Source: Centroscyllium fabricii
Taxonomy: Eukaryota
Assembly: GCA_051313645.2 (NCBI GenBank)
Contig: JBNRSN020000013.1
Location: forward strand, 139,996,001 to 140,060,000
Direction of reading: 5' to 3'
Length of the DNA: 64,000 bases
Positions 1-61,205 of this stretch are shown piece by piece. The translations under genes were made by a program, and so were the position numbers. The notes beneath the pieces were generated by a model. It was not told the DNA's origin. It ran no database searches and saw only the letters and a list, made by a program, of their open reading frames with translations. Positions within the stretch are counted from its first letter, which is position 1; each line of letters begins with the position of its first letter.

Positions 1-399
1 GAATCCTGAGCGGTGTGTCGTCATGATCCACGTCGAGTTGGTAGGTGCTCAGCGACGGATCCCGGGGCCCCAGCGTGCCGTCTACAAGGGCTAGAAAAAA
101 ATGCCTTGACACCGGTGCATCGTGGCTAGCGGTGGGGGGTAATGGTGAGGGGTGGTGGGTAATGGTGGTCTCAGGGGTTCCTGAGGGGGCGAGATCTCTA
201 ATGGAGACCGTGTCCTCCCGCCCGTCAGGCTACGCAACGTAGGTGTATTGGGGGTTGGCGTGGAGGAGATGGACACTTTCGACCAGGGGGTCCGTCTTAT
301 GGCTCCTCACGTGCTTCTGAAGTAGGACGGGCTCTGGGGACGTCAGCCACGATGGTAGCGCGGTCCCTGAGGTGGATTTCCTAGGGAAGCCAAACATTT

Positions 400-2221
400 T
401 TTCGTGAGGAGTAGCGTTGGTGGCAGTACAGAGTAGTGATCGGATTGAGTGGAGCGCATCAGGGAGAACTTCTTGCCAGCGAGAGACTGGAAGGCCTTTA
501 GACTTCAGGGCTAGCAGGGCAGCCTTCCAGACTGTTGCGTTCTCCCTCTCTACCTGTCCATTCTCCCGGGGGTTGTAGCTGGTAGTCCTGCTCGTGGTGA
601 CTCCTCTTGCGAGCAGTTACTGACACAGCTCGTCACTCATAAAGGAGGTACCCCGGTCGCTATGGATATAGCTGGGGAACCCGAACAGGGCGAAGAGATT
701 GTGCAGACACTTGATGACCATGGCAGAGGTCATGTCCGGGCAGGGGATGGCAAAAGGGAAACGTGAGTACTCATCAATAATATTGAGAAGTACACATTGC
801 GGTCAGAGGAGGGGAGGGGCCCTTTAAAATCGACGCTCAGGCGCTCAAAAGGGCGGGTGGCCTTTATCAGGTGTGCTCTGTCTGGCCTATGAAAATGCGG
901 TTTGCACTTGACACAGACTTGGCAGTTCCTGGTCATGGTCCTGACCTCCTCGATGGAGTAAGGCAGGTTGCGGGCCTTGACAAAGTGGAAGAACCTGGTG
1001 ACCCCCGGGTGGCAGAGATCGTTGCGGAGGGACTGCAATCGACCCACCTGTGCACTAGCACATGTTCCGTGGGATAGGGCATCTGGGGGCTCATTGAGCT
1101 TCCCGGGCCGGTACAAAATATCATAATTGTAGGTGGAAAGTTTGATTCTCCTCCTCAATATTTTGTCATTTTTGATTTTGCCCCGCTGCTTGTTATTAAA
1201 CATAAAAGCAACTGAACGTTGGTCAGTGAGCAGGGTGAATCGTTTACCGGCCAGGTTCTATGAGTCTATGAGTAATGCCTCCAGTGCCGCACAGCTTCCA
1301 CAATGGCCTGGGCCTCCTTTTCGACAGAGCAGTGTCTAATTTCGGGGCCCTGGAGGGTTCGTGAGAAGAAGGCCACGGGTCTGCCTGCCTGGTTAAGGGT
1401 AGCGGCCAGGGCAAAGTCGGACGCATTGCTCTCCACCTGGAACGGGGTGGATTTGTCCACAGCGTGCATTGTGGCCTTAGCGATGTCTTCCTTGATGCGG
1501 TTGAAGGCTAGGCGGGCCTCTGCCATCAGGGGGAAAGAGGTGGATTTGATGAGTGGACGGGCTTTGTCCGCATAATTGGGGACCCACTGGGCGTAATGAG
1601 AAGAAGCCCAGGCATCTCTTCAGGGCATTGAGGCAGTGGGGGAGGGGAAGTTCCAGAAGGGGGCGCATGCGGTCGGGTTCGGGACCGATGATCCCGTTCT
1701 CCACGACACAGCCAAGAATAGCGAGGCGGGCCATGTGGAACATGCATTTCTCCTTGTTATAAGTCAGGTTTAGGAGTTGGGCGGTGCGGAGAAATTTCTG
1801 GAGGTTGACGTCATGGTCCTGCAGGTCATGGCCGCAGATGGTGACATTATCCAGGTACGGGAATGTGGCCCGCAGCCCGTTCTGGTCAACCATTTGGTCC
1901 ATCTCCCGCTGGAAGACCGAGACCCCATTGGTGACGCCAAAGGGGACCCTAAGGAAGTGGTAGAGGCGGCCATTCGCCTCAAAGGCAGTGTACTGGCGGT
2001 CCTCAGGGTGGATAGGGAGTTGGTGGTACGCAGACTTTAAGTCGATGGTGGAGAATACCCGGTACTGTGCAATCTGGTTGACCACGTTAGATATGTGGGG
2101 AAGGGGGTATGTGTCCAGCTGCGTATACCGGTTGATGGTTTGGCTATAGTCGATGACCAGGCGGTGTTTCTCACCGGTCTTAACGACCACCACTTGGGCT
2201 CTCCAGGGGCTGGTGCTAGCC
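400..2221 (-). pseudogene. Gypsy pol RT-RNase H-integrase, fragmented
   Basis: ORFs 1477..2193 (RT), 1266..1526 (RNase H), 730..1203 (integrase N-terminus); core motifs (HSDRG, NGQVERENA) continue toward about 400. Confidence 0.85.
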
Positions 2222-3740
2222 TCAATAATCCTTTTCCTTCAGGAGCCGCTGCACCTCGGATTTGATAAAAATTCTGTCCCCAGCACTGTATCGCCTACTC
2301 TTGGTGGCAATGCGCTTACAGTCTGGGGTGAGGTTAGTGAACAGCAGGGGAGGGATGACTTTAAGAGTCGAGAGGCAGCAGATGGTGCGCGGTGGGCAAT
2401 TTACAAACTGCTGGCTGCAGACAGTGAGAGGGGGGAGGGGCCCATCGTACGCCATTGTGATACTCTTAAGGTGGCATTGGAAATCTAACCCCAGTAGCAC
2501 GGCAACGCAGAGCTGTGGTAGAACAAGGAGCTTGAAGCCTTTGTACTTCGTGCCCCTCATAGTCAGGGTCACTACACAGTAGCCGCCGACGTCCGCTGTA
2601 TAGGACTTGGAGGCCATAGAGATCCGGTGGCGTGCTGGCAGGACTGAAAGGGAGTAGCGCTGCACCGTGTCGGGGTGGATAAAGCTCTCCGTGCTCCCGC
2701 AGTCAAACAGGCAGTTCATAGCGCGGCCATTTACCTTGATGTCCATCATGGACCTGGCAAGTTGGTGAGGCCTGGATTGATTCAGGGTGATGGAGGCCAG
2801 CATTGAGTTCGGTGGGTCGCTGTCGTACTCGGTTGAGGCGATGGGGGAGTCGGGGGCCTGATCCCAAAATGGCGGCCCGCACGGCTCACACGCGGCTGGC
2901 GGTGTCCAAGATGGCGACCCCCACGGCCCACACGCGGCGCTGCTGGAGTTGAAGGTTGGTTTGGCCTTGCACACTTTAGCGTAGTGCCCCTTCTTACCGC
3001 AACCGGAGCAGATCGCATCCTTTGCCGGGCAGCGTTGTCTGGGGTGCTTGGCCTGGCCGCAGAAGTAGCACTTTGGGCCTCGGGACATCGCGGCTGTAGT
3101 CAGGCTGCTGGTGGGTCGTGGCGGTGGCGACGTGGCGCAGGCTTGTGGTCCTCCCGAGTCCCAAGATGGCGGCGCCCGTGACATCCACGATGTGGCCGTG
3201 TGGTCAGGGGAGTAGGCGTCCATGTTTCGGTGAGCCACGTCCAGTGTGTCAGCAAGGGTCACAGCCTTCTGCAGGTCGAGCCCACCCTGTTCTAACAGTC
3301 TCTGCCGGGTGTAGCTGGACCTGATGCCAGCAACATAGGCGTCCCGGATTAAGTCCTCCATATTTTCTGTGGCCGTCACTGCCTTGCACTTGCAGGCCCG
3401 GCCGAGGACTCTCAGTGCCTGTAGGTATTCATTGCCCGATTCCCCGGGTCGCTGTTTGCGGGTAGCCAGGAGATGCCTGGCGTAGATCTCATTGATTGTT
3501 TTAGTATATTGACCTTTAAGGAGACTGATCGCGTCCGTATAGGATGTTGCGTCTCGGATCATCGAATATACTTGGTGGCTCACCCGGGAGTTGAGTACAA
3601 GCAGCTTGTCGGCATCGGACCTGACGGTAGCAGTGGAGGCCTGCAGGAATGCTTCAAAGCAGCCAGTGCTCGAAATTGTTGGATGCATCCGCCATTTGAG
3701 GATCCAGCTCCAGCCGTTCTGGCTTCAGTATTTGCTCCAT
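2222..3740 (-). pseudogene. Gypsy gag-protease, frameshifted near 3660
   Basis: ATG at 3740 (MEQILKPERLELDPQ) joins ORF 2222..3688, which has zinc knuckles and an aspartic protease motif. Confidence 0.85.
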
Positions 3741-3762
3741 AATAAAATTTAGTGAATAAAAT

Positions 3763-4040
3763 TGATGCGCTATCAATAACTGCAAAAGACGAGAAGTTAT
3801 ACGAGTAACAAATAGGCTTTTATTTACTAAAGAATGAGAGCATGCCTTCACTGGTCGACTGGTCCTGAACTCAGGGGGACTGGGAAGCAGTCGCCTTTAT
3901 ACCAGGGCCTGAGGGAGGAGCCACAGGCGGAGTCAGCAGAGGCATGCCCAGGCAGGTTACATACATCAGGTAAGAGTGAACCACAATACAACAACAACAG
4001 TGGTTTACCAACAACACAACAACAACACTGGTTTACCACA
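3763..4040 (-). repeat. 5' LTR (278 bp) of the Mag-like Gypsy
   Basis: Minus strand TGTGGTAAACC...ATTGATAGCGCATCA with TATAAA and AATAAAAGCC; same end motifs as solo LTRs at 17919 and 45317. Confidence 0.85.
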
Positions 4041-4328: not shown

Positions 4329-4596
4329 TGTGGCGGATCGCCTCGCATACGGCAAATCCGCCAGACTCACAGACTCTCGAGCGCCGGCGTGCCAACGCAC
4401 AAATGCGCTGACGTCACCGCGCCCGACGCGCAAACGTGCCGACGTCAGCATGTACGTACGAGCTGACGTCACAAAAACGTATATATTTGAGCGCAAGGGC
4501 GCCAAACGCTCTCTCAATGATGTAACCTGAATAAAGAAAGTTGTGTTCGTTTAAACTGGTCTCGGCCTTTACTCTCGCCCGTCAGCAAACCCAACA
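4329..4596 (+). repeat. 5' LTR of CsRn1-like element
   Basis: TG...CA ends; direct repeat of 8328-8595; TATA-like and AATAAA motifs; TGACGTCA at 4409 and 4464. Confidence 0.95.
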
Positions 4597-4597
4597 T

Positions 4598-4610
4598 TGG
4601 TGACCCCGAC
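4598..4610 (+). other. Primer binding site (tRNA-Trp)
   Basis: TGGTGACCCCGAC right after the 5' LTR matches the canonical tRNA-Trp PBS. Confidence 0.85.
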
Positions 4611-4634
4611 ACTCGGAACCAATTAAGCCCTGCA

Positions 4635-7600
4635 ATGACGGACGCAAGCGCAGTTTTGATTAAACTGCCCGAGTTCCGGGAAAACCTGGCTGCAGCCTGG
4701 TTCGTCCAAGCCGAGTCCCGGTTCAGACTGCACCGCATCAGCAGAGACGGGACAATGTATGACCATCTCGTCGCCTCGCTGGCCAGCTCCATGGTCGCGA
4801 AGGGCTGGGCAGAGCTGCAGAACCCACCGCAGCAAGGCAAGTACACACATCTTAAGGCCGCGTTCCTTAAAAGATTTACTACCTCGCAATACCAGCGCAG
4901 CTGCCAGCTCCTCGACCTCCAAGATCTCGGTGACGCTTCACCATCAGTCCTTCTCTCCCACATGCTCTCGCTCGCAGACGAGAACCCACCAGGGCCCCTC
5001 TTCCGAGCACTGTTCATCTGGCAGCTATCTCCCAGCATCCGCCCCGCCATCGTGGCATCTGACCTCCAGAGCCTGGCAGACCTGGCCCGCCTGGCTGACA
5101 GGCTCCTGTCCGCGCACTCGGACCGCGATACCGCGGATTGGGCCCCTCCACGCAGTCACCGGGCCCAGCCTTCAGGCCCACGCGGCCGCCGCATTCCCCA
5201 ACCCCACCGAACCCAGGGTACTGTTACTACCACACCCGGTTCAGCGCCAGGGCGCAACGGTGCACACAACCCTGCACCTTCAAACCCACACCGGCCTCCA
5301 CGATGGCCGTGGGGCATGCAGGCTGCCTCCTGTACGTCACGGATGACAAAACAGGATGCCGTTTCCTGTGCGACACCAGTGTCCAGCACAGCATCGTGCC
5401 CGCCTCCGTCCTCGAAGTCCAGAAGGGCACACGAGGCCCGGCACTCGCTGCGGCAAACGGGTCCGACATCCGGACGTACGGCACCTGCACGGTCCAGCTC
5501 GACATCACATGTCACCGCTACCAATGGGAGTTCATCACTGCCAAGATACTCTCACCCCTCATTGGCGCGGACTTCCTGTGCACACACGGCCTCCTGGTCG
5601 ACATGCCTCGGCGCCGTCTCGTGGACATGAACACCATGACCCCCATCCCTGGCGCCATGGCCCCTGCGCAAGCCCCCGACATGGCGGCACAGTGCCACGC
5701 CCGGGCCACGGACGCCTACTTGGCACTCCTGGCCGAATTCCCGGCCCTCACCAACCCGACTTTCACGGCTAAGGTCGCCAAGCACGGGGTTGAGCACTTC
5801 ATCCAAACCACGGGCCCACCAGTACACGCCCATGCCCGCAGACTGGACCCGGCTAAGCTGGAGGTCGCGCGGAACCAGTTTGCCACTATGGAGCAGCTCG
5901 GCATCATCAACTGCTCCAACAGCCCCGGGGCTTCCCCACTCCACATCGCCCCCAAACCCGACGGAGGCTGGCGCCCCTGTGGGGATTACCGCCGCCTCAA
6001 CGACGCCACCACGCCTGATCGGTACCCGGTGCCGCACATTCAGGATTTTTCAGCCAAACTGGCCAGTTGCTCAGTCTTCTCCAAGGTCGACCTGGTGCGC
6101 AGATATCACCAAGATGGCAGTCATCACCCACTTCGGGCTGTTCAAGTTCCTGCGAATGTCCTTTGGCCTTAAAAAGGCAGCACAGGCATTCCAGCGCCTC
6201 ATGTTCCTAGACGACATCGTGGTAGCCAGTTCCTCCAGACAGGAACATCTTGAACACCTTGAGGTCCTGTTCAGGCGCCTCAGCGAGCACGGGCTCATCC
6301 TCAGCCCAGCCAAGTGCCAGTTCGGCCTGGACCGGATCGACTTCCTCGGCCACCACATCCCCCAGGCCGGGGCCATTCCCCTGCCCACCAAGGTGCAGGC
6401 AGTCCAGCAATTCCCCGTCCCACCACTGTCAAGGGCCTCCAGGAGTTCCTGGGGATGGTCAATTTTTACAACCGCTTTATCCCCAAAGTGGCGTCCCTCA
6501 TGGGCCCCCTCTACCAAGCCCTCCGCGGCAAGAGCGGCAAAATGGCAGTTGAATGGACGGTGGACACCTCCGCTGCCTTCGATTCCACCAAATCGGCGCT
6601 CGCCGACGCCACCCTCCTCACACACCCACAGCCTAATGACCATGCGGTCGGCACCATGTACGAGCAGTGGGTCGACGGGGCCTGGCAGCCCCTCGCCTTT
6701 TTCAGCCGCCAGCTGCGCCCCCCGGAGATGAAATACCGCACCTTCGACCGCAAGCTCCTCGCGCTGCACCTGGCGGTACGCCACTTTAGGTTTTTGCTGG
6801 AGGGCCACCCCTTCACCGCGTTTGTCGACCACAAACCCCTGACATTCACGATGGCAAAAGCAGCTGACCCCTGGTCCGCCAGACAGCAGCGCCAGCTCAG
6901 AGCCTGTCCGAGTTTACCACAGACATCCAATACGTCTCCGGTCGAGACAACGTGGTAGCCGACTGCCTCTCCCGCCCAGCCATCCACGCCACACATCTGG
7001 CAGTCGACTATGCATGGCTTGCAGCGGACCAGCTCACCGACCCGGACCTGCTCTCTGCGCCAACCAGCTTTCCCGGCCTATGCTTGGCCTCCGTCACCTG
7101 CGGCCCGACCGCGACCAGCATCACATGTGACGTTACCCTGCCCCAACCCCGGCCCGTCGTCCCAGCATCTTGGCGCCGGCATGTTTTCAACATACTCCAC
7201 AACCTCTGCCACCCCGGCGCCCGTGCTTCCATCAAATTGGTTGCCAACCACTTCGTCTGGCGCGGCCGTAGTAAAGATGTGCATACTTGGGCCAACTCAT
7301 GCATTGCCTGCCAACGTGCCAAGGTGCATCAGCACATCAAGGCACCCCCTCGGGGAGTTCGACGTCCCCGCACGGCGATTCAACCATGTACACATGGACA
7401 TCGTGGGGCCCCTGCCGCCATCACAGGGCCAGACCCACTTGCTCACTATCATGGACCGCAATACTCGCTGGCCCGAGGCGATACCACTGGCCTCCACCAC
7501 CACAGCGGACCTCGCCAGAGCCTTCATCGCCACGTGGGTCGCCCGGTTCGGCGTCCCCTCCGACATAACATCGGACAGAGGACCCCAGTTCACCTCTGCA

Positions 7601-8200
7601 CTGTGGACTGCTGTTGCTCACAACCTCAGGATGACCTTACACCGCACCACGGCGTACCGCCCACAAGCCAACGGACTGTGTGAACGCTTCCACAGATCCA
7701 TGAAAGCTATTCTACGGGCCAGCCTCACGGACAGCACCTGGACTGACCGCCTCCCATGGGTCATGCTCGGCCTCCGCTCCGTGGTCAAAGAGGACCTCCA
7801 TGCGTCTGCAGCAGAGCTTGTCCACGGCCAACCGCTGCGCGTACCCAGCAAGTCCCTGGTCGCCGCAACGACACCCTGGTCGGCTGACTAGCAACGCCTC
7901 GACTTCACCGCCTTGGCGCAACTGTTCACCCCGGTGCCCATGACCCGGCACGGTGAAACAGCCTCACACGTCCCGCTTGGCCTGCACCAGGCGCAATTCG
8001 TCTTCATCCGCCATGACGCTCTCCGCGGACCTCTACAACCTCCATACGATGGGCCCTACAATGTGCTTCTGGCGGGGGACTAGTTTTTTCAACTACAGGT
8101 GGGCAACAGAACCGAAACGGTGTCGGTCGACAGTCTTAAGCCGGCACACACTGAGCCCGGCGAACCCACTCCAGTTGCCCACCCACCGCTACGAGGCCGA
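4635..8200 (+). pseudogene. CsRn1-like gag-pol, multiple frameshifts and stops
   Basis: gag (IKLPEF...AWFVQAESRF), protease, RT (WRPCGDYRRLN, FLDD), RNase H (DHKPL), integrase (HMDIVGPLP, SDRGPQF, ANGLCERFH). Confidence 0.85.
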
Positions 8201-8327
8201 CCCCTGGCCAGCCAGCTTGCCCGGCCTCTACTCCTCAACCGACGCCAGCCAAGAGCCGCTCCAGCCGGCCCATCAGACCGCCGCAACGCCTCGTCCACTC
8301 CTCCTGAGCGGATTCTGGAGGGAGCTC

Positions 8328-8595
8328 TGTGGATGATCGCCTCTCATACGGCGAATCCGCCGGACTCGCAGACTCTCGAGCGCTGGCGTGCCAACGCACA
8401 AACGCGCTGACGTCACCGTGCCCGACGCGCAAACGCGCCGACGTCATCACGTACGTACGTGCTGACATCACGAAAATGTATATATTTGAGCGCAAGGGCG
8501 CCAAACGCTCTCTCAACGATGTAACCTGAATAAAGAAAGTTGTGTTCGTTTAAACTGGTCTCGGCCTTTACTCTCGCCCATCAGCAAACCCAACA
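8328..8595 (+). repeat. 3' LTR of CsRn1-like element
   Basis: Direct repeat of 4329-4596, followed by ATTT TSD. Confidence 0.95.
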
Positions 8596-9375: not shown

Positions 9376-10253
9376 CTAAGCAAATCTGGCCAAGATAAGT
9401 GCGTTCCTTGCATCCCAGGCAGCAATGTTCTCGCGTACTGCTGCCGCTGGTTGATAGGCCTCTGCAAGATGTTTGTTTTCGTTCTCCTCCTTCTCCTCAT
9501 CTGAGGAGGATATGTGACGAGCCACTTGGTCCTCAGCAATCTGCAAGCCACAATGCTGTGCCGTGTTGTGAAGTGCACAGCAAACCACAACGATTCTGGA
9601 GACCCTGGTTGCTGAGTACTGCAGGGCTCCACCTGATCTATCCAGGTATCTGAAGCGCATCTTCAGCAAACCGATGGTTTGCTCGATTATGGCTCTGGTG
9701 GACATGTGACTGGAGTTGTATCTCTCCTCAGCTTCGTTGGATGGTCTCAATGGTGTCATTAGCCACGTCTTTAGGGGCTAGCCCTTGTCTCCAAGTAGCC
9801 AATCATTAAGTTGGTCTGGTGGACTGAACAGCGGAGGCACACTAGACTGGCGCAGTATGAAGGAGTCATGGTAACTGCCAGGGTACTTGGCACAAACATG
9901 CAAAATTTCCTTCTTGTGGTCACACACCAGCTGAACGTTAAGGGAGTGGAAGCCCTTGCAGTTGACAAAAATACCTGGATTGCGATGGGGTGCCCTAACA
10001 GCTGTAACATTCCCAATACCCCGATGAAAAACTCGTAAAAAAATCGGAAGTGCACTGCGCACTTCCTGGAGCACAGGCCAAGGCGCTGCAGCTCCCTCCC
10101 CCCCCACCCCCCCCTCCCCCAGCCTTCTTCGGAATTGCAGGTATCCCACGCATGCGCGGGAAATGGCGTCTACCTGCAATTCCAAGGGCCGCACACTTGA
10201 GTACACGCTTCGTACTTGCACGTTGGGCCTCGGGGCCATTGGAAAAACCGGCC
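9376..10253 (-). mobile_element. Internally deleted PIF/Harbinger transposon fragment (transposase C-half plus one terminus)
   Basis: [43 protein letters not shown]; terminus GGGCCGGTTTTT at 10253 abuts a Gypsy LTR. Confidence 0.85.
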
Positions 10254-11655
10254 CATTATATTCACGTGATCACACGCCGAGCCGTCATTGGCCTGCAGGC
10301 ATCTGTAAGGACTGCTATTGTTTGGAAGACCCAGGCTAGGGGTCCTAATGCCATGCTTTCTCCAGTGGTGCTGCTAGGAGTAACATCACAGACCTAATGC
10401 TTAATAAAAAGTTAAACTGTAATACTCCGTTGTCCTGCAATTTATTATTTTTGTACAAAGTGTGCAAAAACAAGACATGGTGCCAGAAGTAGGATTGGAA
10501 AATGGACATCGTTGGAGCTCCCTTGCCACGAATGGATTGGGAATCTTTGAAGTTACCTGGAGAATGGCGCAAGTTCAAGCAACACGTGGAGTTGATGTTC
10601 TCAGGTCCTCTAAAAAGCAAAGGGAAGGAAGAAAGATGCAGCTACCTACTCCTGTGGATCAGAGAAAAAGGGAGAGACATCTTTAACACATGGTCTCTCA
10701 CCGCGGATGAAGCAAAGGTACTGAAACGTTATTTTGACCGTTTTTGAATCATATGTGATGCCCAAGACAAATACGATATTCGCTAAGTACAAGTTTCAGG
10801 AGAAAGTACAAGGAGCTAGTGAGTCATTTGAACAGTTTGTGACTGAGTTAAAACTGCTGGTAATAGACTGTGGATATGCAGATAAAGATGAGATGGTCAG
10901 AGACCGCATCGTGTTTGGAATACATTCAGCTGAAGTGAGAGAGAAACTTTTGAATATTGGGTCCGGGCTAACGCTGGACAAAGCTATGGATATAGCTAGA
11001 TAGCACGAGATAGCCCAAGCATAGTTGAAAACAACAACTGGCGCCACGAGCAGCTCGCGTGAACAGACAGTGCACACAGTTAATAGACACAGAAACCAAA
11101 GAACGAGAGAGTTCTAACAATGAGCGACACAGACATAAATCGCTTCAAAAATTGTGGATATTATGGAAATGAGGTGCATGGGGAAAAGGAGCACTGCCCT
11201 GCCAAAGGAAGGCAATGTGCTAAGTGTGGTAAATGGAACCACTTTGCTAAAGTTTGCAGGACTGTTTTTGGAAAAGCAGTACACACAGTGAGTGACAGCC
11301 AAATGCCAGATAGAGAGCCAAATGCAGAGGAACTGTTTATTGATTCTGTGTCACAGAAAAAAGATATCAGCGACTGAGCAAGCCTTTGCAGATATTGAGA
11401 TAGGAAAACAGGGCACAGAGCTAAAGTTTAAACTAGACACTGGTTTTCAGGTTAATGTAATTACTCTGATTGAGTATCACAGCTTGAAGGATGAGTGTGA
11501 GCTACAGCCCACCTCATGCAGACTGACCAGCTATAGGGGTGAGCAGCTCATTGTAATAGGCACGTGCGTGATGAAATGCAAGTACAAAGAAAGCGACATG
11601 ATGTTGGACTTCTACATTGTTGACACTCGAGCACATCCAGTGCTAGGTCTAAAGG

Positions 11656-17153: not shown

Positions 17154-19148
17154 ATGGCAGGAAGTATCCCCCCAAAAATTAAAAGAACCGTTCACTTTTC
17201 TGAGGATGACATTAAGAATCTCCTCGACGAGGTGGAAGCACGAAAATCGAAGATAGTCGGTACTCCACAGTCAAGAGCGCCACGAAAGCAGCAAACAATT
17301 GCGTGGGCTGAGATTGCCGAAGCTGTGAGCGCAACCTCAGCAGTTACTCGAACGATGGAGCAGTGTAGGAAAAAACTTAGTGATTTGCTCAGAATTGTCA
17401 AGGTTAGTTCAGTGTAACAGAACTTTAATCTCTGTATAAAGTGAGTTGCATATGTGGCAGTCTTTGATCCACCTTAAAATTATAAATGACAGTCCTTGAG
17501 GCCCCATGAAAGGTTAGTTTACTGTAACAGAACTTTAATGTCTATATAAAGTCAGCTGCATATGTGGCAGTCTTTGATCAGCCTTTAAAGTATAAGTCTT
17601 TCTGGCACCATGAAAGGTTAGTTCATTGTAACAGAACTTTAATTTCTTGTTAAAGTGAGTTTCATATGTGGCAGTCTTTGATCCACCATAAAACTTTAAT
17701 GCCAGTCTCTCAGGCACCATGGCAGGCAATACAACTTTATGGCAGGGACATCTGCTTTAATCTTCAGGATTGCTGCAGCTCCTAAAAGGGTGCTTGCAGG
17801 TTATAAAGAGCAATCTACTTCATGTCTTGCATTTGTATTGCAGGCTAAAACCAGGTTCAATCATGCTGAACTCAGCAAGACAGGTGGAGGGACAGCTTTG
17901 AGGAAGGAGTTGACTGAGTGTGGTGAACAATTTAGTGTAGTTCACACTGTGTTATTATTGTATATAGTTTGTGTTAATAAAGTTGTTCCTTTCTGTAAGC
18001 ACCTGGACCAGCTGACCCCGCCTCCGGGTATGAGTATAAAGGAGGATGCTCCGCCCACCTGACTCTCATTCCGGGCAGGACTCATCGCGGACCAGGTCTT
18101 GTTCTTAGCGAATAAAAGCCTTTGATTACGATCCACGAAAGACTGGCGTGATTGATTAGCGCATCACTGAGCAAGAGGAAAGGGTTAATCAGCTTTATCA
18201 GTTTGCTGATGACTGTCCCCCTGAAAACTTAGAGATGGCCTGTGGCTCAGCCTTAGTAGCAGAACGTGAGTTCGTGTGGCCATTTACTCTGTGTTTAATG
18301 TGGATTATCAGCATACTAACTCTTTATTCTACACATGTTCCCCTACAGGAGGTGGGCAGAGCTTCCATTCCATGGGCGCAGAGGACATTGCTGCAGGTGC
18401 TGATGTTGCAGAGAGTGTTGCTGTGACGGGTGTGGAGGAGAACCAGGAGCCTGACACCAAGGAGGCTGATGTCGATCCTGAAGAAATGGTGGAATTGCAG
18501 CTGATGGCGATACCAGCGGAGGAGATGGACAATTCAGTATTGTGTGCATCAGTAGCTGGCCCTGGTGGTCCTGAGTCAGTCACATCAGCTGTCAGTTCCA
18601 CCCAGACACTTGATGCAGAGACTGAAGTGCATGAGGACCAATGTGAGAGAAACTCAGATGATGAGGTCGTGCTCATTGGTGCTTTAGAAAAATCAGTGTG
18701 TGAGATGGGTGAGAAATTTGTTGCAGGGATGTGCACACTCGGCCAACAGTTTGAAAATGTGGCAAAAGCGGATGAAAAAATTAATTAAAATCTTGAGAAA
18801 ATTAATTCCAACTTGGAGAGAAATAGTTTAAATCTGGAGAAAATTAATTCCAACCTGGAGAAAATTAATGTAAATCTTGAAAATGGAGTTAATGTGCTTG
18901 ATAAAATGCTCCCCCTTGGCCAGCAGTGCTTCAATGAGTGGAAGCAGAAGCAGACTCCCACACCCCCGCCCTTACCTGCTCGCAGCACAGAGACAGTGGA
19001 GGCCCAGGGTGAAGCTGCAGCTTCAGTGGACATACAGCAGGAATCACAGGAGTTAATAGCTGAAGGGCAGAAGACAGCAATCACTGCCCGATCTAGTGGA
19101 AGAGTAGCCCAGCGGCAACGGGGACAGGGTAGGCGCTGGAAGCCTTAG
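17154..19148 (+). pseudogene. Harbinger Myb/SANT-like DNA-binding protein gene, 3 coding exons, disrupted
   Basis: Exons 17154-17402, 17844-18265 (minus the LTR insertion) and 18349-19148; GT/AG sites; TACTAAC branch point at 18314; motifs FSEDD...W..IA...RT.EQCRKK, TGGG; reconstructs to 405 aa with one in-frame TAA at 18786-18788. Confidence 0.85.
17919..18166 (+). mobile_element. Solo LTR (248 bp) in exon 2 of the Myb gene
   Basis: TGTGGT...ATTGATTAGCGCATCA, 5-bp TSD CTGAG; removing it restores the frame (ELTE-QEERV). Confidence 0.9.
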
Positions 19149-19662: not shown

Positions 19663-20844
19663 CTATGTGGTGAAGCTGCTAGCTACTAGTGCTTCACGGG
19701 CAGCCTTACTTTCAGCAGCACTTGGCTCTGGCCTGTCAGGCCTTGCAGCAGGAAGATTGTCATCATCCAAGTTACTGCCCATGTCATCCACTTCAGCGGG
19801 AAGCTCCTCCTCACGGTTCAGGGTCATTCCCTCTCGCAGGGCTATGTTATGCAACATACAGCAGGCTATCACAATCCTTCCCACTTTCTCATGAGAATAC
19901 TGCAAGGTCCCCCCTGTCCGGTCCAAGCACCGGAAGCGTGATTTCAAAAGCCCAATTGTGCTCTCCACCACTTGTCGGGTGGACACATGCGCCTGATTGT
20001 ATCTTTCCTCAGCCTCATTGCTGGTGTTGCGGTAGGGGGTCATCAGAAAAGGTCTTAGTGGGTAACCTTTATCACCCAGTAACCATCCTGATCCTGGAGG
20101 CAATGCTTGCAGTTTAGCATATGCAATCGAGTAACGGAGGGCAGTGGAGTCATGATTACTTCCCCGGTTCGCAGCATTGACGCAAAGGATCCTGAGGTTA
20201 GCATCACAGATGATCATCACATTCAATGAATGAAAACCCTTCCTGTTAATGTATGTCACAGGCGCTTGTCCAGGTGCCTTCAATGCAATGTGAGTTCCAT
20301 CCACGGCACCAATCACTTTTGGGAATCTTGCGATCCGATAAAAATCAATGGCCCGCTCCCTGACACAGCGACTTGACAAGTCAAAATTAATGAACTGCTC
20401 AGCCCTACGGTACAGTGCATCTGTGACCTGATGAATGCAGGCCCTCGCAGCATTTTTGGAGATGTTGCTTATGTCACCGCTGATTGCCTGAAACGATCCA
20501 TTGGCAAAGAAGTTCAGTGCTGTGGTCACCTTCATGCTGACTGACAAGGCAGTACAGGTCTTTGACTGTGTCTGAAGGTCCTCCCTCAACATGTCACAAA
20601 GTCGACCAATTGCCTCTTTCGTGAAGCGCAGCCTCCTCACACACAGCTCCTCCGACATCATCTCATATGTTCTTCTCTCCCTGTACACTCTGTTTGCTGG
20701 GTAGTTCATAGTTCTGATCATGAGACGTTGATGGTTGTGCCTTAATCTCTCCTGTTCCCTCTGTCTTACATCCTGTTCCCTCCGTCGTCTTCTTCTCAAA
20801 ATTAATCTCATAATTGCAAGGCAGAGCATCATGACTGGAAACAT
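19663..20844 (-). CDS. Harbinger (HARBI1-like) DDE transposase, 393 aa, open
   Basis: Uninterrupted ORF with [50 protein letters not shown]. Confidence 0.92.
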   Translation of the reverse strand: MFPVMMLCLAIMRLILRRRRRREQDVRQREQERLRHNHQRLMIRTMNYPANRVYRERRTYEMMSEELCVRRLRFTKEAIGRLCDMLREDLQTQSKTCTALSVSMKVTTALNFFANGSFQAISGDISNISKNAARACIHQVTDALYRRAEQFINFDLSSRCVRERAIDFYRIARFPKVIGAVDGTHIALKAPGQAPVTYINRKGFHSLNVMIICDANLRILCVNAANRGSNHDSTALRYSIAYAKLQALPPGSGWLLGDKGYPLRPFLMTPYRNTSNEAEERYNQAHVSTRQVVESTIGLLKSRFRCLDRTGGTLQYSHEKVGRIVIACCMLHNIALREGMTLNREEELPAEVDDMGSNLDDDNLPAARPDRPEPSAAESKAAREALVASSFTT

Positions 20845-21274
20845 GTCTACCTCAGAGGCTACCTATGTAAAGTGGATTACCTAAAAGTTAAAAGTACAAC
20901 AGTCATTAAAAGTTAGGGGTAGAAAATCACCACAGCATGACCATAAAATATTTGCACTTACACGCCTGTGCATTAAGATGGCATTAAACGCTTCACACAG
21001 ATAGATGCATACATACATAGATACATACACACCTTAAATAAATTCATCCTTATGCATGACAGGAGTACCTAAAATAAATGATTACAGGGAGGCAGAAGAC
21101 ACACCACTGAAAGGTTGATTAGCAACAACAAGGAAGAAATTTGTCTCTTATGCTGATTAAGCAAAGCAAGCAATGGCTTCTGAAAAATCCACCAAAAACA
21201 GCAGCTCCTCAGCAGTCCACAAACAGCTATGAAAAAGCACTTTCCTGGGACTAGGGACAGGGTCACTGGCAAGG

Positions 21275-22752: not shown

Positions 22753-22789
22753 GTAAAAGCGCCTCAGACACTGCCGCACTCTCACACCC

Positions 22790-25110
22790 GGGGAGGGGGC
22801 TCGGGGGGAGGGGGCTCAGCGTCTGGGGGAGGGGCTCGGGGGGAGGGGGGCTCTGTCTGGGGGAGGGGCTCGGGGAGGGGGCTCTGTGTCTGGGGGAGGG
22901 GGCTCTGTCTCTGGGGGAGGGGGCTCTGTGTCTGGGGGAGGGGGCTCTGTCTCTGGGGGAGGGGGCTCTGTCTGGGGGAGGGGGCTCTGTGTCTGGGGGA
23001 GGGGGCTCTGGGGAGGGGGGAGGGGGCTCTGGGGAGGGGGCTCTGTCTCTGGGGGAGGGGGCTCTGTGGGAGGGGGCTCTGTCTCTGGGGGAGGGGGCTC
23101 TGTCTGGGGGAGGGGGCTCTGTCTGGGGGAGGGGGCTCTGTCTGGGGGAGGGGGCTCTGTGTCTGGGGGAGGGGGCTCAGCGTCTGGGGGAGGGGCTCTC
23201 GGGGAGGGGCTCTGTCTGGGGGAGGGGGCTCAATGTCTGGGGGAGGGGGCTCAATGTCTGGGGGAGGGGGCTCAATGTCTGGGGGTGGGGGCTCAACGTC
23301 CGGGGGAGGGGGCTCAGCATCCGGGGGAGGGGTCCTGCGTCTGGGGGAGGGGGCTCAGCGTCTGGGGGCTCGGGAGGGGGCTTGTGTCTGGGGGAGGGGA
23401 CTCGGTGGAGAGCTGTGAGGTTCAGTGTCTGGGGGAGGGGGCCTAGTGTCTGGGGGAGGGGGGCTAATGTCTGGGGGAGGGGGGCTAGTGTCTGGGGGAG
23501 GGGGGCTAGTGTCTGGGCAAGGGGGGCTAGTGTCTGGGCGAGGGGGGCTAGTGTCTGGGCGAGGGGGGCTAGTGTCTGGGGGCGGGGGGCTAGTGTCTGG
23601 GGGCGGGGGGCTAGTGTCTGGGGGAGGGGGGCTAGTGTCTGGGGTAGGAGGGCTAGTGTCTCTGGGGCAGGGGGCTCAGTGTCTGGAAGGAGGCTCAATG
23701 TCTTGGGGGGGCGGGGAGGGGGTTCAATGTCGGGGTGAGGAGGGGGCTCAGCGTCTGGGGGAGGGGGCTCAGCGTCTGGGGGAGGGGGCTCAGCGTTTGG
23801 GGGAGGGGGCTCAGCATCTGGGGAGGGGGCCAGTGTCTCTGCGGGAGGGGGGCTAGTGTCTGGGGGAGGGGGCTAGTGTCGGGGAGGGGGACTAGTGTCG
23901 GGGGAGGGGGCTAGTGTCTCTGGGTGAGGGGCTCATTGGGGGAGGGGCTCATTGTCTGGGGGAGGGGGCTCATTGGGGGAGGGGGCTAGTGTCTGGGGGA
24001 GGGGGCTCAGTGTTCGGGGGAGGGGACCCGGGGGGGTTGCTCAGTGACTGGGGCAGGGGCTCAGGGGGAGGGGGCTTGGGGGAGAGCTGGGGGTGGGGGC
24101 TCACTTCTGGGGTAGGGGGCTCTGTGTCTGGGGGAGGGGGCTCAGTGTCTGGTGGAGGGTCCTCAGCTTCTGGGGAGCGGCTCAGCGTCTGGGGGCAGGG
24201 GCTCAGCATCGGGGGAGGGGGCTCAGTGCCTGGGGGATGGGGCACGCGCTGTTCGGGGGAGGGGACCCGGGGGGAGGGGGCCCGCGCTGTTCGGGGGAGG
24301 GGGCTCTGTCTGGGGGGGGAGGCTCAATGTCTGGGTGGGCGGGGAATGGGGTTCAATGTCTGGAAGGGGGGCTCAGCGTCTGGGGGAGGGGGCTCAGTGT
24401 CTGGAAGAGGGGCTCAGCGTCTGGGGGAGGGGGGATCAATGTCTGGAAGGGGGGCTCAGCGTCTGGGGGAGGGGGAGGGCTCGGGGGAGGTGGCTAATGT
24501 CTGGGGAGGAGGCTCGGCGGGGAGCTGTGGGGTTCAGTGTCTGGGGGAGGGGGGCTAGTGTCTGCGGGAGGGGGGCTAGTGTCTGGGGGAGGGGGCTCGG
24601 TGGAGGGGGGCTAGCGCCTGGGGGAGGGGGACTAGTGTCTCTGGGGCAGGGGGCTCAGTGTCTGGGGGAGGGGCTCAGTGTCTGGGGGAGGGGCTCAGTG
24701 TCTGGGGGAGGGGCTCAGTGTCTGGGAGGGGGGGCTAGAGGCAGAGCTCGGGTGGAGGGGGCTCCAGGGAGGGCGGCTTAGGGGAGAGGGCTAGTGTCTG
24801 GGGGAGCGGGTTCAGTGTCTGGGGGAGATGGGCTAGCGTCTGGGGGAGATGGGCTAGCGTCTGGGGAGGGATGGCTAGCGTCTGGGGGTGAGGGGCTAGT
24901 GTCTGGGGGCTAGCGGCTGGGATGTGGTCTGGGAGAGGGTCTGGGGGTGGGGGGTCTCGGTGTCTAGGGGTGAGGGGACTCAGTGTCTCGGGGTGGGGGG
25001 GTCTCGGGGTGGGGGGGTTTCTCAGTGTCTCGGGGTGGGGGTCTCGGTGTCTCGGGGTGGGGGGTCTCAGTATCTGGGGAGGGTGCTCGGTGTCTTGAGG
25101 TGGGGGGGTG
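22790..25110 (+). repeat. G-rich tandem repeat (TCTGGGGGAGGGGGCTCTGTG-like, about 19-21 bp) at the start of intron 1
   Basis: About 2.3 kb of G4-G6 runs with strong strand asymmetry. Confidence 0.9.
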
Positions 25111-45316: not shown

Positions 45317-45588
45317 TGTGGTAAACCACTGTATATAGTATATATATGTCTCCCCCTTGTGTCCCCTCCCTGTAACTGTACGTAACGCCTCCTTGCCAGG
45401 GAGGACTCACCTGGGAGGACTCCGCTCCTCGGCTTCCTCCCCAGACTTTGCCCACTGGGTATAAAAGTGAGAGCACACCTGAGTGCTCTCACTTTGGCTT
45501 GGAAGATCGTCGGACCTGTGTCCACTTTTATGTGAATAAAAGCCTCGATTACATCTAACCATCGACTGGAGTAATTGATTGTGCATCA
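45317..45588 (+). mobile_element. Solo LTR (272 bp)
   Basis: TGTGGTAAACCA...ATTGATTGTGCATCA; TSD ATCAG; TATAAAA and GTGAATAAAAGCC. Confidence 0.9.
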
Positions 45589-50031: not shown

Positions 50032-51145
50032 CAGGTTGCGCACCGGTAATCCGGCACCCGATGGTCCGGCAGCTTCAGTGGTCTGACACGATTGGAAACC
50101 GGCGCTCTTCCTTTTGTGGAGCAGCCGCTCGGCGGCGCCACCATTTCCCAGGAAGGGTGAGCGAGCGCCGAGTTTGGGTTTCTGTTTTTTTTAGGTTTTG
50201 TTAAGAGTTCTATCCCCGGGCTCCCTCCCAGGTAGTGTTCTACCGCGCACTCCGGGCCCCGGGGAGTGTTCTACCCGTGCGCTCCGGGCCCCGGGGAGTG
50301 TTCTACCCGGGCCCCGGGGAGTGTTCTACCCGTGCGCTCCGGGCCCCGGGGAGTGTTCTATCGCCGGGCTCCCTCCCAGGTAGTGTTCTACCCGTGCACT
50401 CCGGGCCCCGGGGGGTTTTCTACCTGCGGGCCCCGGGGAGTGTTCTACCTGCGCGCTCCGGGCCCCGGGGAGTGTTCTACCCGCACGCTCCGGGCATCGG
50501 GGAGTGTTCTACCCGCACGCTCCGGGCCTCGGAGAGTGTTCTACCCGCATGCTCCGGACCCCGGGGAGTGTTCTACCCGCATGCTCTGGGCCCCGGGGAG
50601 TGTTCTACCCGCATGCTCCGGGCCCCGGGGAGTGTTCTACCCGCATGCTCCGGGCCCCGGGGAGAGTTCTACCCGCATGCTCCGGGCCTCGGGGAGTGTT
50701 CTACCCGCATGCTCCGGGCCTCGGGGAGTGTTCTACCGCGCGCTCCAGGCCCCGGGGAGTGGTCTACCGCGCGCTCCAGGCCCCGGGGAGTGTTCTACCC
50801 GCGCGCTCCAGGCCCCGGGGAGTGTTCTACCCGCACGCTCCGGGCCTCGGGAGTGTTCTACCCGCACGCTCCGGACCCCGGGGTGTGTTCTACCCGCACG
50901 CTCCGGACCCCGGGGTGTGTTCTACCCGCACGCTCCGGACCCCGGGGTGTGTTCTACTGTGCGCTCCGGGCCCCAGGGAGTGTTCTACCCGCACGCTCCG
51001 GGCCCCGGGGAGTGTTGTACTGCGCGCTCCGGGCCCCGGGGAGTGTTCTACCGCCCCCCCCCCCCCACCCGAACCTTCAGTGGTTCTGAATTTTTACTGG
51101 TCCCGCACTGGTCCCGAGGGTGCCGGATTAACGGTGCTCAATCTG
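50032..51145. mobile_element. Tigger-like MITE with an expanded 32-bp minisatellite
   Basis: TIRs as 53514-53831; roughly 25 units of CCCCGGGGAGTGTTCTACCCGCACGCTCCGGG. Confidence 0.85.
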
Positions 51146-52261: not shown

Positions 52262-52832
52262 GTCTTGGCATAGTGGTTAGCACCGTTGCCTCACAGCGCC
52301 AGGGGTCCGGGTTCAAATCCAGCCTCGGGTGACTATCTGTGTGGACAATTGCAAGAAGTCACACAACACCAGATTGTAGTCCAACAGTTTTATTTTAAAT
52401 CACAAGCTTTCGGAGCGTTCGCCCCTTCGTCAGGTGGAAAGAGAGACTGACGAAGGGGCGAACGCTCCGAAAGCTTGTGATTTAAAATAAAACTGTTGGA
52501 CTATAATCTGGTGTTGTGTGACTTCTTGCAATTGTCCACCCCAGTCCAATGGAAGCAACAGATAGATCATTGCAACAAACGTCAAGTGACTGGACAGAAT
52601 GATGCATTATTGACCTGTGTGGAGTTTGCACATTCTCCCCGTGTCTGCGTGGGTTTCCTCCCACAATCCAAAGATGTGCAGGTTCGGTTGATTGACCAGG
52701 ATAAATTGACCCTTAGTGTTAGGGGGATTAAATATGTGGGGGTTACGGGGATAGGGTGGGATATGTGTCGGTGCAGGCTCGATGGGGCGAAATGGCCTCT
52801 ATCTGCACTGTAGGGATTCTATGATTCTATGA
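52262..52832 (+). mobile_element. HE1-like V-SINE interrupted by a Penelope palindrome
   Basis: Head 52262-52345; V core resumes at 52615; short GATTCTAT tail. Confidence 0.85.
52341..52546. mobile_element. Penelope pseudo-LTR palindrome with two opposed hammerhead motifs
   Basis: 93-bp arms 52341-52433 and 52447-52539, 13-nt spacer, one mismatch seen. Confidence 0.88.
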
Positions 52833-60202: not shown

Positions 60203-61205
60203 CAGGTTGAGCACCGGTAATCTGGCACCCGATTGTCCGGCAGCTTCAGCGGTTCGGCACAATTGGAAACCGGCGCTCTTCATTTTGCGGAGCAGCCGCT
60301 CGGCGGCGCCACCATTTCCCGCGAAGGGTCTGCGAGCGCTGACGGCGTCGGGCGTTTGGGTTTCTGTTTTTTTAGGTTCTGCAAGTGTTCTATCCACGGG
60401 CTCCCTCCCGGGGAATGTTCTACCCGCGCGCTCCGGGCCCTGGGTAGTGTTCTACCCGCGCGCTCCGGGCCCTGGGTAGTGTTCTACCCGCGCGCTCCGG
60501 GCCCTGGGTAGTGTTCTACCCGCGCGCTCCGGGCCCCAGGGAGTGTTCTACCGCGTGCTCCGGGCCCCGGGGAGTGTTCTACCCACGTGCTCCGGGCCCC
60601 GGGGAGTGGTGTTCTGCGCGCTCCGGACCCCGGGGAGTGTTCTACTGCGCGCTCCGGGCCCCGGGGAGTGTTCTACCGCGCGCTCCTGCACCGGGGAGTG
60701 TTCTACTGCGCGCTTTGGGCCCCGGGGAGTGTTCTACTGCGCGCTCCGGGCCCCGGGGAGTGTTCTACCCGCACGCTCTGGGCCCCGGGAAGTGTTCTAC
60801 CCGCACGCTCTGGGCCCCGGGGAGTGTTCTACCCGCGCGCTCCGGGCCCCGGGGAGTGTTCTACCCGCACGCTCCGGGCCCCGGGGAGTGTTCTACCCGC
60901 ACGCTCCGGGCCCCGGGGAGTGTTCCACCGCGCGCTCCGGGCCCCGGGGCGTTTTCCACCGCGGGCCCCGGGGATTGTTCTACCCGCGCGCTCCGGGCAC
61001 CGGGGAGTGTTCTACCCGCGCGCTCCGGGCCCCGGGGAGTGTTCTACCTGCGCGCTCCGGGCCCCGGGGAGTGTTCTACTGCGCGCTCCGGGCTTAGGGG
61101 AGTGTTCTACCCGCACGCTCCCCCCGAACCTTCAGTGGATCGGAATTTTCAGTGGTCCGGCTCCGGCCTGCTCCCGAGGGTGCCGGATTAACGGTGCTCA
61201 ACTTG
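60203..61205. mobile_element. Tigger-like MITE with an expanded 32-bp minisatellite
   Basis: Same body as 53514 and 50032; roughly 22 repeat units. Confidence 0.85.

Follow-up and report, generated by a model that had tools for sequence, protein, structure and literature searches.

Probable Self-Priming from the Poly(A)-Signal Region of the LTR in an Animal Clade of Ty3/Gypsy Elements

Ty3/Gypsy elements of one clade in the genome of Centroscyllium fabricii carry, one nucleotide from the 5′ LTR, a primer-binding site that lacks the TGG of tRNA-type sites and instead complements the stretch of their own LTR that contains the poly(A) signal. Covariation between the two strands makes self-priming in some form very probable. 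We consider it likely that the primer is the element's own RNA, probably its capped first ∼50 nt, which would be freed by a predicted cut at AAA/GCC; the sequences also suggest that the primer is likely not the first 11 nt, as it is in Tf1. Retroviruses and most LTR elements are, as a rule, primed by tRNA; Tf1 and its kin are the shown exception. Self-priming itself is known, and the internal, poly(A)-signal-containing primer end in an animal clade is best read as a new variant of it.

The window, i.e., the whole 64,000-nucleotide stretch analyzed here, contains, in its first 4 kb, a decayed Ty3/Gypsy element on the minus strand, in which the coding sequence is broken into several frames. The order gag-PR-RT-RNaseH-IN between TG...CA LTRs, together with a polypurine tract and a target duplication, identifies it as Ty3/Gypsy. 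The 3′ LTR lies just beyond the window, behind the polypurine tract (G000:C335:139995220-139994943), and is 96.8% identical to the 5′ LTR; a 5-bp target duplication flanks the pair. The LTR limits were set by 29 other genomic copies starting at 4040 and by the 3′ LTR. The closest named proteins (74 to 83% identity) come from sharks and rays. The features discussed below are as follows, in window coordinates.

3763..4040, minus strand: 5′ LTR, 278 bp, TG...CA (both ends common to the 29 other genomic copies; matches the 3′ LTR)
3896..3901, minus strand: TATA-like box (from sequence, with equal spacing to the initiator in related families; putative function)
3868..3874, minus strand: initiator-like site with the putative transcription start at ∼3871 (alignment and fossil ends)
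3818..3831, minus strand: 14-mer of the R region with GCC next to it, predicted to form the 3′ end of the self-primer (pairs 13/14 with the primer site; covariation)
3819..3824, minus strand: AATAAA hexamer within the duplex, predicted poly(A) signal (paired variants; one poly(A)-ended copy)
3763..3817, minus strand: remaining R and U5, looped out between the duplex strands; template of the predicted minus-strand strong-stop DNA
3762, minus strand: single A between the LTR end and the primer site (1-nt gap in 29/29 close copies and 19/19 RT-selected elements)
3748..3761, minus strand: primer-binding site, lacking TGG; every base except the C at 3754 is paired in the window copy
2222..3740, minus strand: gag with two CCHC-like knuckles, and protease; frame shifts near 3660
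1477..2238, minus strand: reverse transcriptase (RT), YLDN at the YxDD motif (PF00078, E = 1e-21; translation)
179..1718, minus strand: RNase H and integrase in several broken frames (tblastn against a natural intact relative)
45317..45588, plus strand: solo LTR of related family B (5-bp target duplication; full-length members L048 and L060 have a matching changed primer site)
about 17919..18166, plus strand: solo LTR of related family C, a young family that yielded the first set of fossils (5-bp target duplication)

The window holds other repeats as well. Back to back with the studied element lies a CsRn1-like Gypsy element (4329-8595, plus strand), which has the usual TGG type of primer site (at 4598) and is a useful control. 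Two sets of open reading frames on the minus strand (9376-10269 and 19663-20862) resemble the Harbinger/PIF type and, judging by their motifs, are presumably transposases of that type. G-rich tandem arrays with 21-bp and 32-bp units occupy 22769-24900, 50227-51086, and 60366-61190, and the 32-bp array is present twice, each time with a common upstream segment. A near-perfect 93-bp inverted repeat with a 13-nt spacer lies at 52341-52539.

On the minus strand, the LTR ends with CA at 3763 and is followed by an A (3762) and the 14-nt primer site (3761-3748), with the gag ATG at 3740, 22 nt from the LTR, as the initial annotation of this DNA had reported. Recomputation also reproduced the pairing that it had proposed: 3761-3748 pairs at 13 of 14 positions with 3831-3818, the stretch containing AATAAA at 3824-3819. 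This level was reached in none of 1,000 dinucleotide shuffles of the 278-nt LTR (best, 12/14, in two shuffles). The 29 closest genomic copies, a sample biased by having been picked for likeness to the window junction, pair at 14/14 (17 copies), 13/14 (10 copies), or 12/14 (2 copies) positions. In the tRNA-primed Gypsy clades (CsRn1-like and Mag-like), the site begins with TGG and complements the 3′ end of a tRNA; such a TGG site, which might have been retained in other copies and deleted in this one, was found in 0 of the 29 close copies and 0 of 19 elements selected by RT. The single mismatch had been ascribed to an altered LTR base, with reference to two solo LTRs that have G at that position. 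Both solo LTRs are real, and they belong to other families of the same clade; the odd base in the window's subfamily is instead the primer-site C at 3754 (T in 28 of the 29 close copies), not the LTR A. The expected G:C pair is present, albeit in a sister subfamily.

The complementarity covaries across subfamilies, which had been proposed at the outset as a test. In the families of the window's two solo LTRs (B and C), the primer sites of full-length members changed in step with the LTR stretch, a compensatory change of the kind found in self-primed LTR elements. A genome-wide pattern that required AATAAAA in the LTR and, downstream of the LTR end, its complement matched 169,914 times, compared with 47 for the reversed control, and a second pattern, in which T was barred at one primer-site position, gave 76,314 compared with 439, so that both patterns together yield about 246,000 junctions in the 7.2-Gb host genome. 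Among the first 100 matches listed for the second pattern, inspected by eye, 98 had ATTAAA with the matching primer-site change and 2 were mismatched; none had AGTAAA or ACTAAA. AATAAA and ATTAAA were the only paired hexamer variants seen in the host genome.

For positions that the patterns do not fix, we compared pairing with that of shuffled partners in 89 fetched loci (90 minus one fold-back copy), which are kin, so that the counts are not independent events. Pairing was found in 88/89 loci at position 6 (50 with partners shuffled), 84/89 at position 8 (26 shuffled), 88/89 at position 9 (51 shuffled), and 86/89 at position 12 (45 shuffled), and position 8 included all four pair types. Over positions 8 to 13, only five G-U pairs occurred in total, making the pairing essentially Watson-Crick. 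At position 14, 45/89 loci paired, and from position 15 onward pairing was at the chance level of the shuffled partners; the duplex thus ends sharply at 13 to 15 bp. A host tRNA fragment or other small RNA could in principle prime these elements, the LTR match being incidental, and half-tRNA primers do exist in Ty1/copia lineages (PMC6317226). The 89 loci, however, contain 50 distinct primer-site 14-mers, each matched to its own LTR. Furthermore, within the window's group, one position shows all four pair types among near-identical LTRs, matched in 30/30 cases by script and in 95/100 by eye. As four different bases at one position are each matched, a fixed host RNA cannot be the partner; covariation nearly refutes a host RNA primer, which we regard as very improbable.

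We also sampled elements by RT, irrespective of any primer-site pattern. A 600-kb stretch of contig C1 held 67 RT loci, of which 33 fell in the clade; 14 of these had no usable 5′ LTR. All 19 usable elements had the 1-nt gap and a complement ending at AAA/GCC, 44 to 60 nt from the LTR end. The complement was 12 to 15 bp long in 18 of them and 9 contiguous bp in one. In the same stretch, 13 Gypsy elements from outside the clade showed TGG by eye. A 3′ end after AAA that would lie 1 nt from the LTR edge, the geometry originally suggested for the primer, was invariant across the elements examined. Among 80 metagenome loci, we examined the 27 whose match reached the gag start. The geometry was shared by 23 of them, with 10 to 18 bp, each above the best of 20 shuffles; of the other four, three are on contigs that end too close and one was without any pairing. 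These relatives represent about 13 families, 8 with AATAAA or ATTAAA and 5 with GTTAAA, TTTAAA, or GATAAA, i.e., noncanonical poly(A) signals. The strict invariant is therefore the TAAA end and not the canonical signal.

In a quick RT tree of 73 rows, the self-complementary elements all fell in one clade on a long stem (SH-aLRT, 99), apart from the TGG elements; the tree included neither Tf1 nor sushi, and one outgroup row labeled TGG reads GGG at the junction. Named protein homologs come also from cnidarians, nematodes, and insects. The Pfam lists of the homologs contained no chromodomain family, and none of the 240 homolog matches listed bore a flatworm name; the Saci2/lennie clade of flatworms has tRNA-type primer sites according to the available text of PMC12471100. 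Motif look-ups for a clade name (MolGy, PolGy, and Cigr-1 were sought) gave no match in the searchable supplements of PMC6238403 and PMC8556966. The RT catalytic motif of the window element, YLDN, belongs to a wider set: 126 of 212 homologs have YxDN, 69 have a YxDD-type motif, and 17 were unparsed, which points to a large, evidently mobile clade without the second aspartate. A text search of the literature on YxDN-type RT returned no relevant paper. YLDN as a partner trait of self-priming was rejected, as two YLDD members self-pair likewise.

The duplex dominates the predicted fold of the leader, with a probability of 0.61 to 0.99 in 25 leaders. Between its strands, the segment 3763..3817 (44 to 60 nt long in relatives) forms an inner stem in predicted folds. 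On the 5′ side of the duplex, a short local hairpin could also be made out by eye. Several folds contained a second helix, which joins the gag start to R upstream of the duplex; it was not supported, as own partners were no better than those of other families in the 25 leaders. According to the predictions, the whole hexamer is paired in the 5′ leader, and in the context of the 3′ LTR it is mostly freer. In HIV, the 5′ poly(A) signal is hidden by the poly(A) hairpin, and the duplex here might likewise merely hide the signal, or serve as a packaging structure, while some other primer is used. Such a role would accord with the predicted difference between the two LTR contexts and with the restriction of paired variants in the host to the two hexamers. 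A mere structure would, however, allow G-U pairs and a variable position; here the pairs are of the Watson-Crick type, the gap never departs from 1 nt, and no alternative primer site is present in the 22 nt between the LTR and gag. We think this explanation improbable.

The position of the poly(A) site is suggested by one copy (L461; G000:C845:26389704), the only match in a search for poly(A)-tailed copies, whose LTR ends in a run of 16 to 17 A's located 16 nt after the hexamer. It appears to be a captured polyadenylated transcript end, which would place the poly(A) site 16 nt past the hexamer and so leave ∼15 to 17 nt of R for the first strand transfer. RNA contigs of four runs, compared with the family C leader, gave no information on the start, end, or poly(A), and no RNA data set containing that leader was listed.

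For the transcription start, two motifs come into question. The distal initiator-like motif, 50 to 54 nt upstream (50 nt from the duplex end in family C), is conserved, lies ∼30 nt below the TATA-like box (∼33 nt in family C), and has an A that is invariant in 14/14 aligned family members. A proximal motif directly upstream of the 14-mer is present in the window's family and absent from the others. Plain Tf1-type priming would have transcription start at the duplex, with the first 13 to 15 nt of the transcript as the primer; the proximal motif of the window's family would suit it, and Tf1 itself works in this way (PMC7175516, in its available text). It fits poorly with the absence of that motif elsewhere and with the conserved distal motif, and a start at the duplex would leave the TATA-like box at an unusual distance. 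Read-through fossils, described below, also pass the proximal position and reach the distal one, where, at the initiator ∼37 to 40 nt 5′ of the duplex, their ends cluster in both families C and D; one sister-subfamily fossil ends there too. We therefore consider Tf1-type priming unlikely to apply and place the putative start at the distal initiator and not at the duplex. The earlier suggestion that the paired stretch, unlike that of Tf1, is not the transcript 5′ end gains indirect support from the same fossils.

The first such fossil was locus L081, in which the primer site runs on into a reversed copy of R. Fold-back junctions of this kind numbered 176 in family C and 139 in family group D. 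In family C, the 176 junctions (one mismatch allowed) compare with 2,265 exact primer-site junctions, i.e., up to ∼8%, although the settings differ. From the first-listed 70 per family, we kept fossils with a recognizable intact upstream LTR and outside flank (44 in C and 36 in D) and merged those sharing a junction, which left 40 and 35 independent fossils (75 in all). In family C, 29 do not extend beyond the initiator-like motif, 4 end past it, and 7 run through U3; the corresponding numbers in family D are 20, 5, and 10, giving pooled proportions of 49/75, 9/75, and 17/75. Per base at risk, ends were 7.1 times (C; P = 7e-6) and 3.8 times (D; P = 3e-3) more frequent up to the initiator than beyond it. 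Of the junctions still running there, 15/41 (9/20 in C and 6/21 in D) end within −2 to +3 of the initiator, whereas the next six bases hold 1/11 and 2/15 ends, respectively. The exact subfamily of the window gave no match to the fossil pattern. Its sister subfamily has eight fossils with three informative ends, at 26, 48, and 55 nt, and the end at 55 nt (one of the eight fossils) falls at the matching motif, window position 3871.

As the fossils pile up at the initiator, past the duplex, the primer is likely the capped 5′ fragment of ∼50 nt. In a post hoc observation, the base following initiator ends was C in 8/11 cases, compared with 7/47 elsewhere, an extra base that would fit copying of the cap G. 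Many fossils jump to internal sequence in the normal direction. For 19 of the 58 short fossils, the fetched stretch included a later LTR end; each of the 19 showed a target duplication (15 exact and 4 with one mismatch), which indicates that they integrated as units. Eight insertions of ∼300 bp (L135, L140, L144, L148, L381, L419, L211, and L432) consist of an LTR, the primer site, a reversed part of R, and the last U5 bases, with a target duplication; as they lack the polypurine tract, they probably represent dead ends of reverse transcription.

Not all fossils can derive from a capped 5′ fragment. Such a fragment cannot template the 17 U3 run-throughs, some of which reach the polypurine tract and internal sequence from the 3′ part of the element; another route, either DNA snap-back or a switch to the 3′ copy of R, therefore also operates. 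The same switch, made onto an intact RNA 5′ end, could yield the short class as well. Self-priming might use another piece, either a 13- to 15-nt fragment trimmed at both ends or the same stretch from the 3′ copy of R or from a second RNA, with the fossils arising when plus-strand DNA switches onto intact RNA. The sharp stop of the complement at 13 to 15 bp is what a twice-cut primer would give, and the U3 run-throughs fit a 3′ R template. On the other hand, the 49 independent fossils that end at or before the initiator look like a single overrun followed by one wrong transfer, and the 5′ copy lies only 44 to 60 nt from the site, with which it is predicted to pair in cis. We regard a different piece as the less probable source of the primer, though a more serious contender than the other alternatives. 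Should the short fossils result from switching, they would nevertheless locate the start site and attest to pairing while reverse transcription is under way, but would not show a covalent 50-nt primer.

With the capped 5′ fragment as the preferred primer, the cycle may be outlined as follows. In every family, the site is placed 1 nt from the LTR and complements the LTR stretch by Watson-Crick pairing. In the predicted fold, the two strands would pair within the 5′ leader, looping out 44 to 60 nt and burying the 5′ poly(A) hexamer, and the 3′ LTR copy of the stretch would be without a partner. By analogy with Tf1, nuclease cleavage, most likely by the RNase H of the element, would then occur at the 3′ end of the paired stretch, and RT would extend the freed 3′-OH, with the ∼15 to 17 nt of R behind the cut serving the first strand transfer. 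Plus-strand synthesis would copy 13 to 15 nt of the primer, thereby remaking the site. The fossils suggest that in some percent of events it overruns, as no modified base acts as a stop, and copying to the RNA 5′ end would then produce fold-back insertions. That the primer is copied back into the site in each cycle would explain the fast, exact, and Watson-Crick-only covariation. In its full form, in which one helix acts as a switch that silences the 5′ poly(A) signal, a cut at AAA/GCC turns the capped 50-nt 5′ end into the primer, the site is rewritten each cycle so that both strands evolve in lockstep, and overrun insertions record the start site and even the cap, all across a pan-animal clade, this account has in our judgment an even chance of being correct.

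Several known systems share parts of this arrangement. Tf1/Tf2 of Schizosaccharomyces pombe, Tj1, and the Tf1/sushi group also have a primer site complementary to their own LTR and use no tRNA, with a predicted cut freeing a 3′-OH and a structured U5 between the strands; the Tf1 mechanism is described in PMC7175516, PMC4600332, and PMC11042837, the available text of the first stating that RNase H cleavage makes the primer. The primer site of the Tf1/sushi group, however, pairs with the very start of the transcript (first ∼11 nt), whereas fossils and promoter spacing here suggest a start ∼37 to 40 nt upstream of the duplex. That group also belongs to the chromovirus RT branch, in which an integrase chromodomain is usual; the Pfam lists for homologs of the window clade showed none. 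For the Ty1/copia elements TAR (Houba and Osr-1) and for Tcn1, a self-complementary primer site has been predicted from sequence, as here, in another superfamily or in the chromovirus branch, and in plants and fungi; the available text of PMC6317226 contains no statement on overlap between those primers and the poly(A) signal. In Skipper of dictyostelids, a chromovirus, a pyrimidine-rich stretch replaces the TGG site, and its authors report no complement in the LTR (PMC5006619, available text). The fossils have a counterpart in defective HIV-1 proviruses with primer read-through, described in the available text of PMC12657518, which have the same anatomy of 5′ LTR, primer site, 7 to 54 nt of extra primer, and a downstream jump; there the insert is tRNA-Lys3, whereas here it is the element's own R up to the putative start. 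For animal Gypsy clades other than chromoviruses, a search of openly available full-text papers found none that describes self-priming by way of the poly(A) signal.

Annotation software that relies on finding a tRNA site would overlook or mislabel this clade. Fragments of tRNA control tRNA-primed elements, and a large, nonchromodomain animal clade that escapes tRNA would also escape this control. If the primer is internal and includes the poly(A) signal, 3′-end control would be coupled with replication. The fossil approach should be general, as the fold-back or insert sequence after the primer site names the primer of any LTR family; if the switch reading is true, overrun insertions would let primers be read from assemblies alone.
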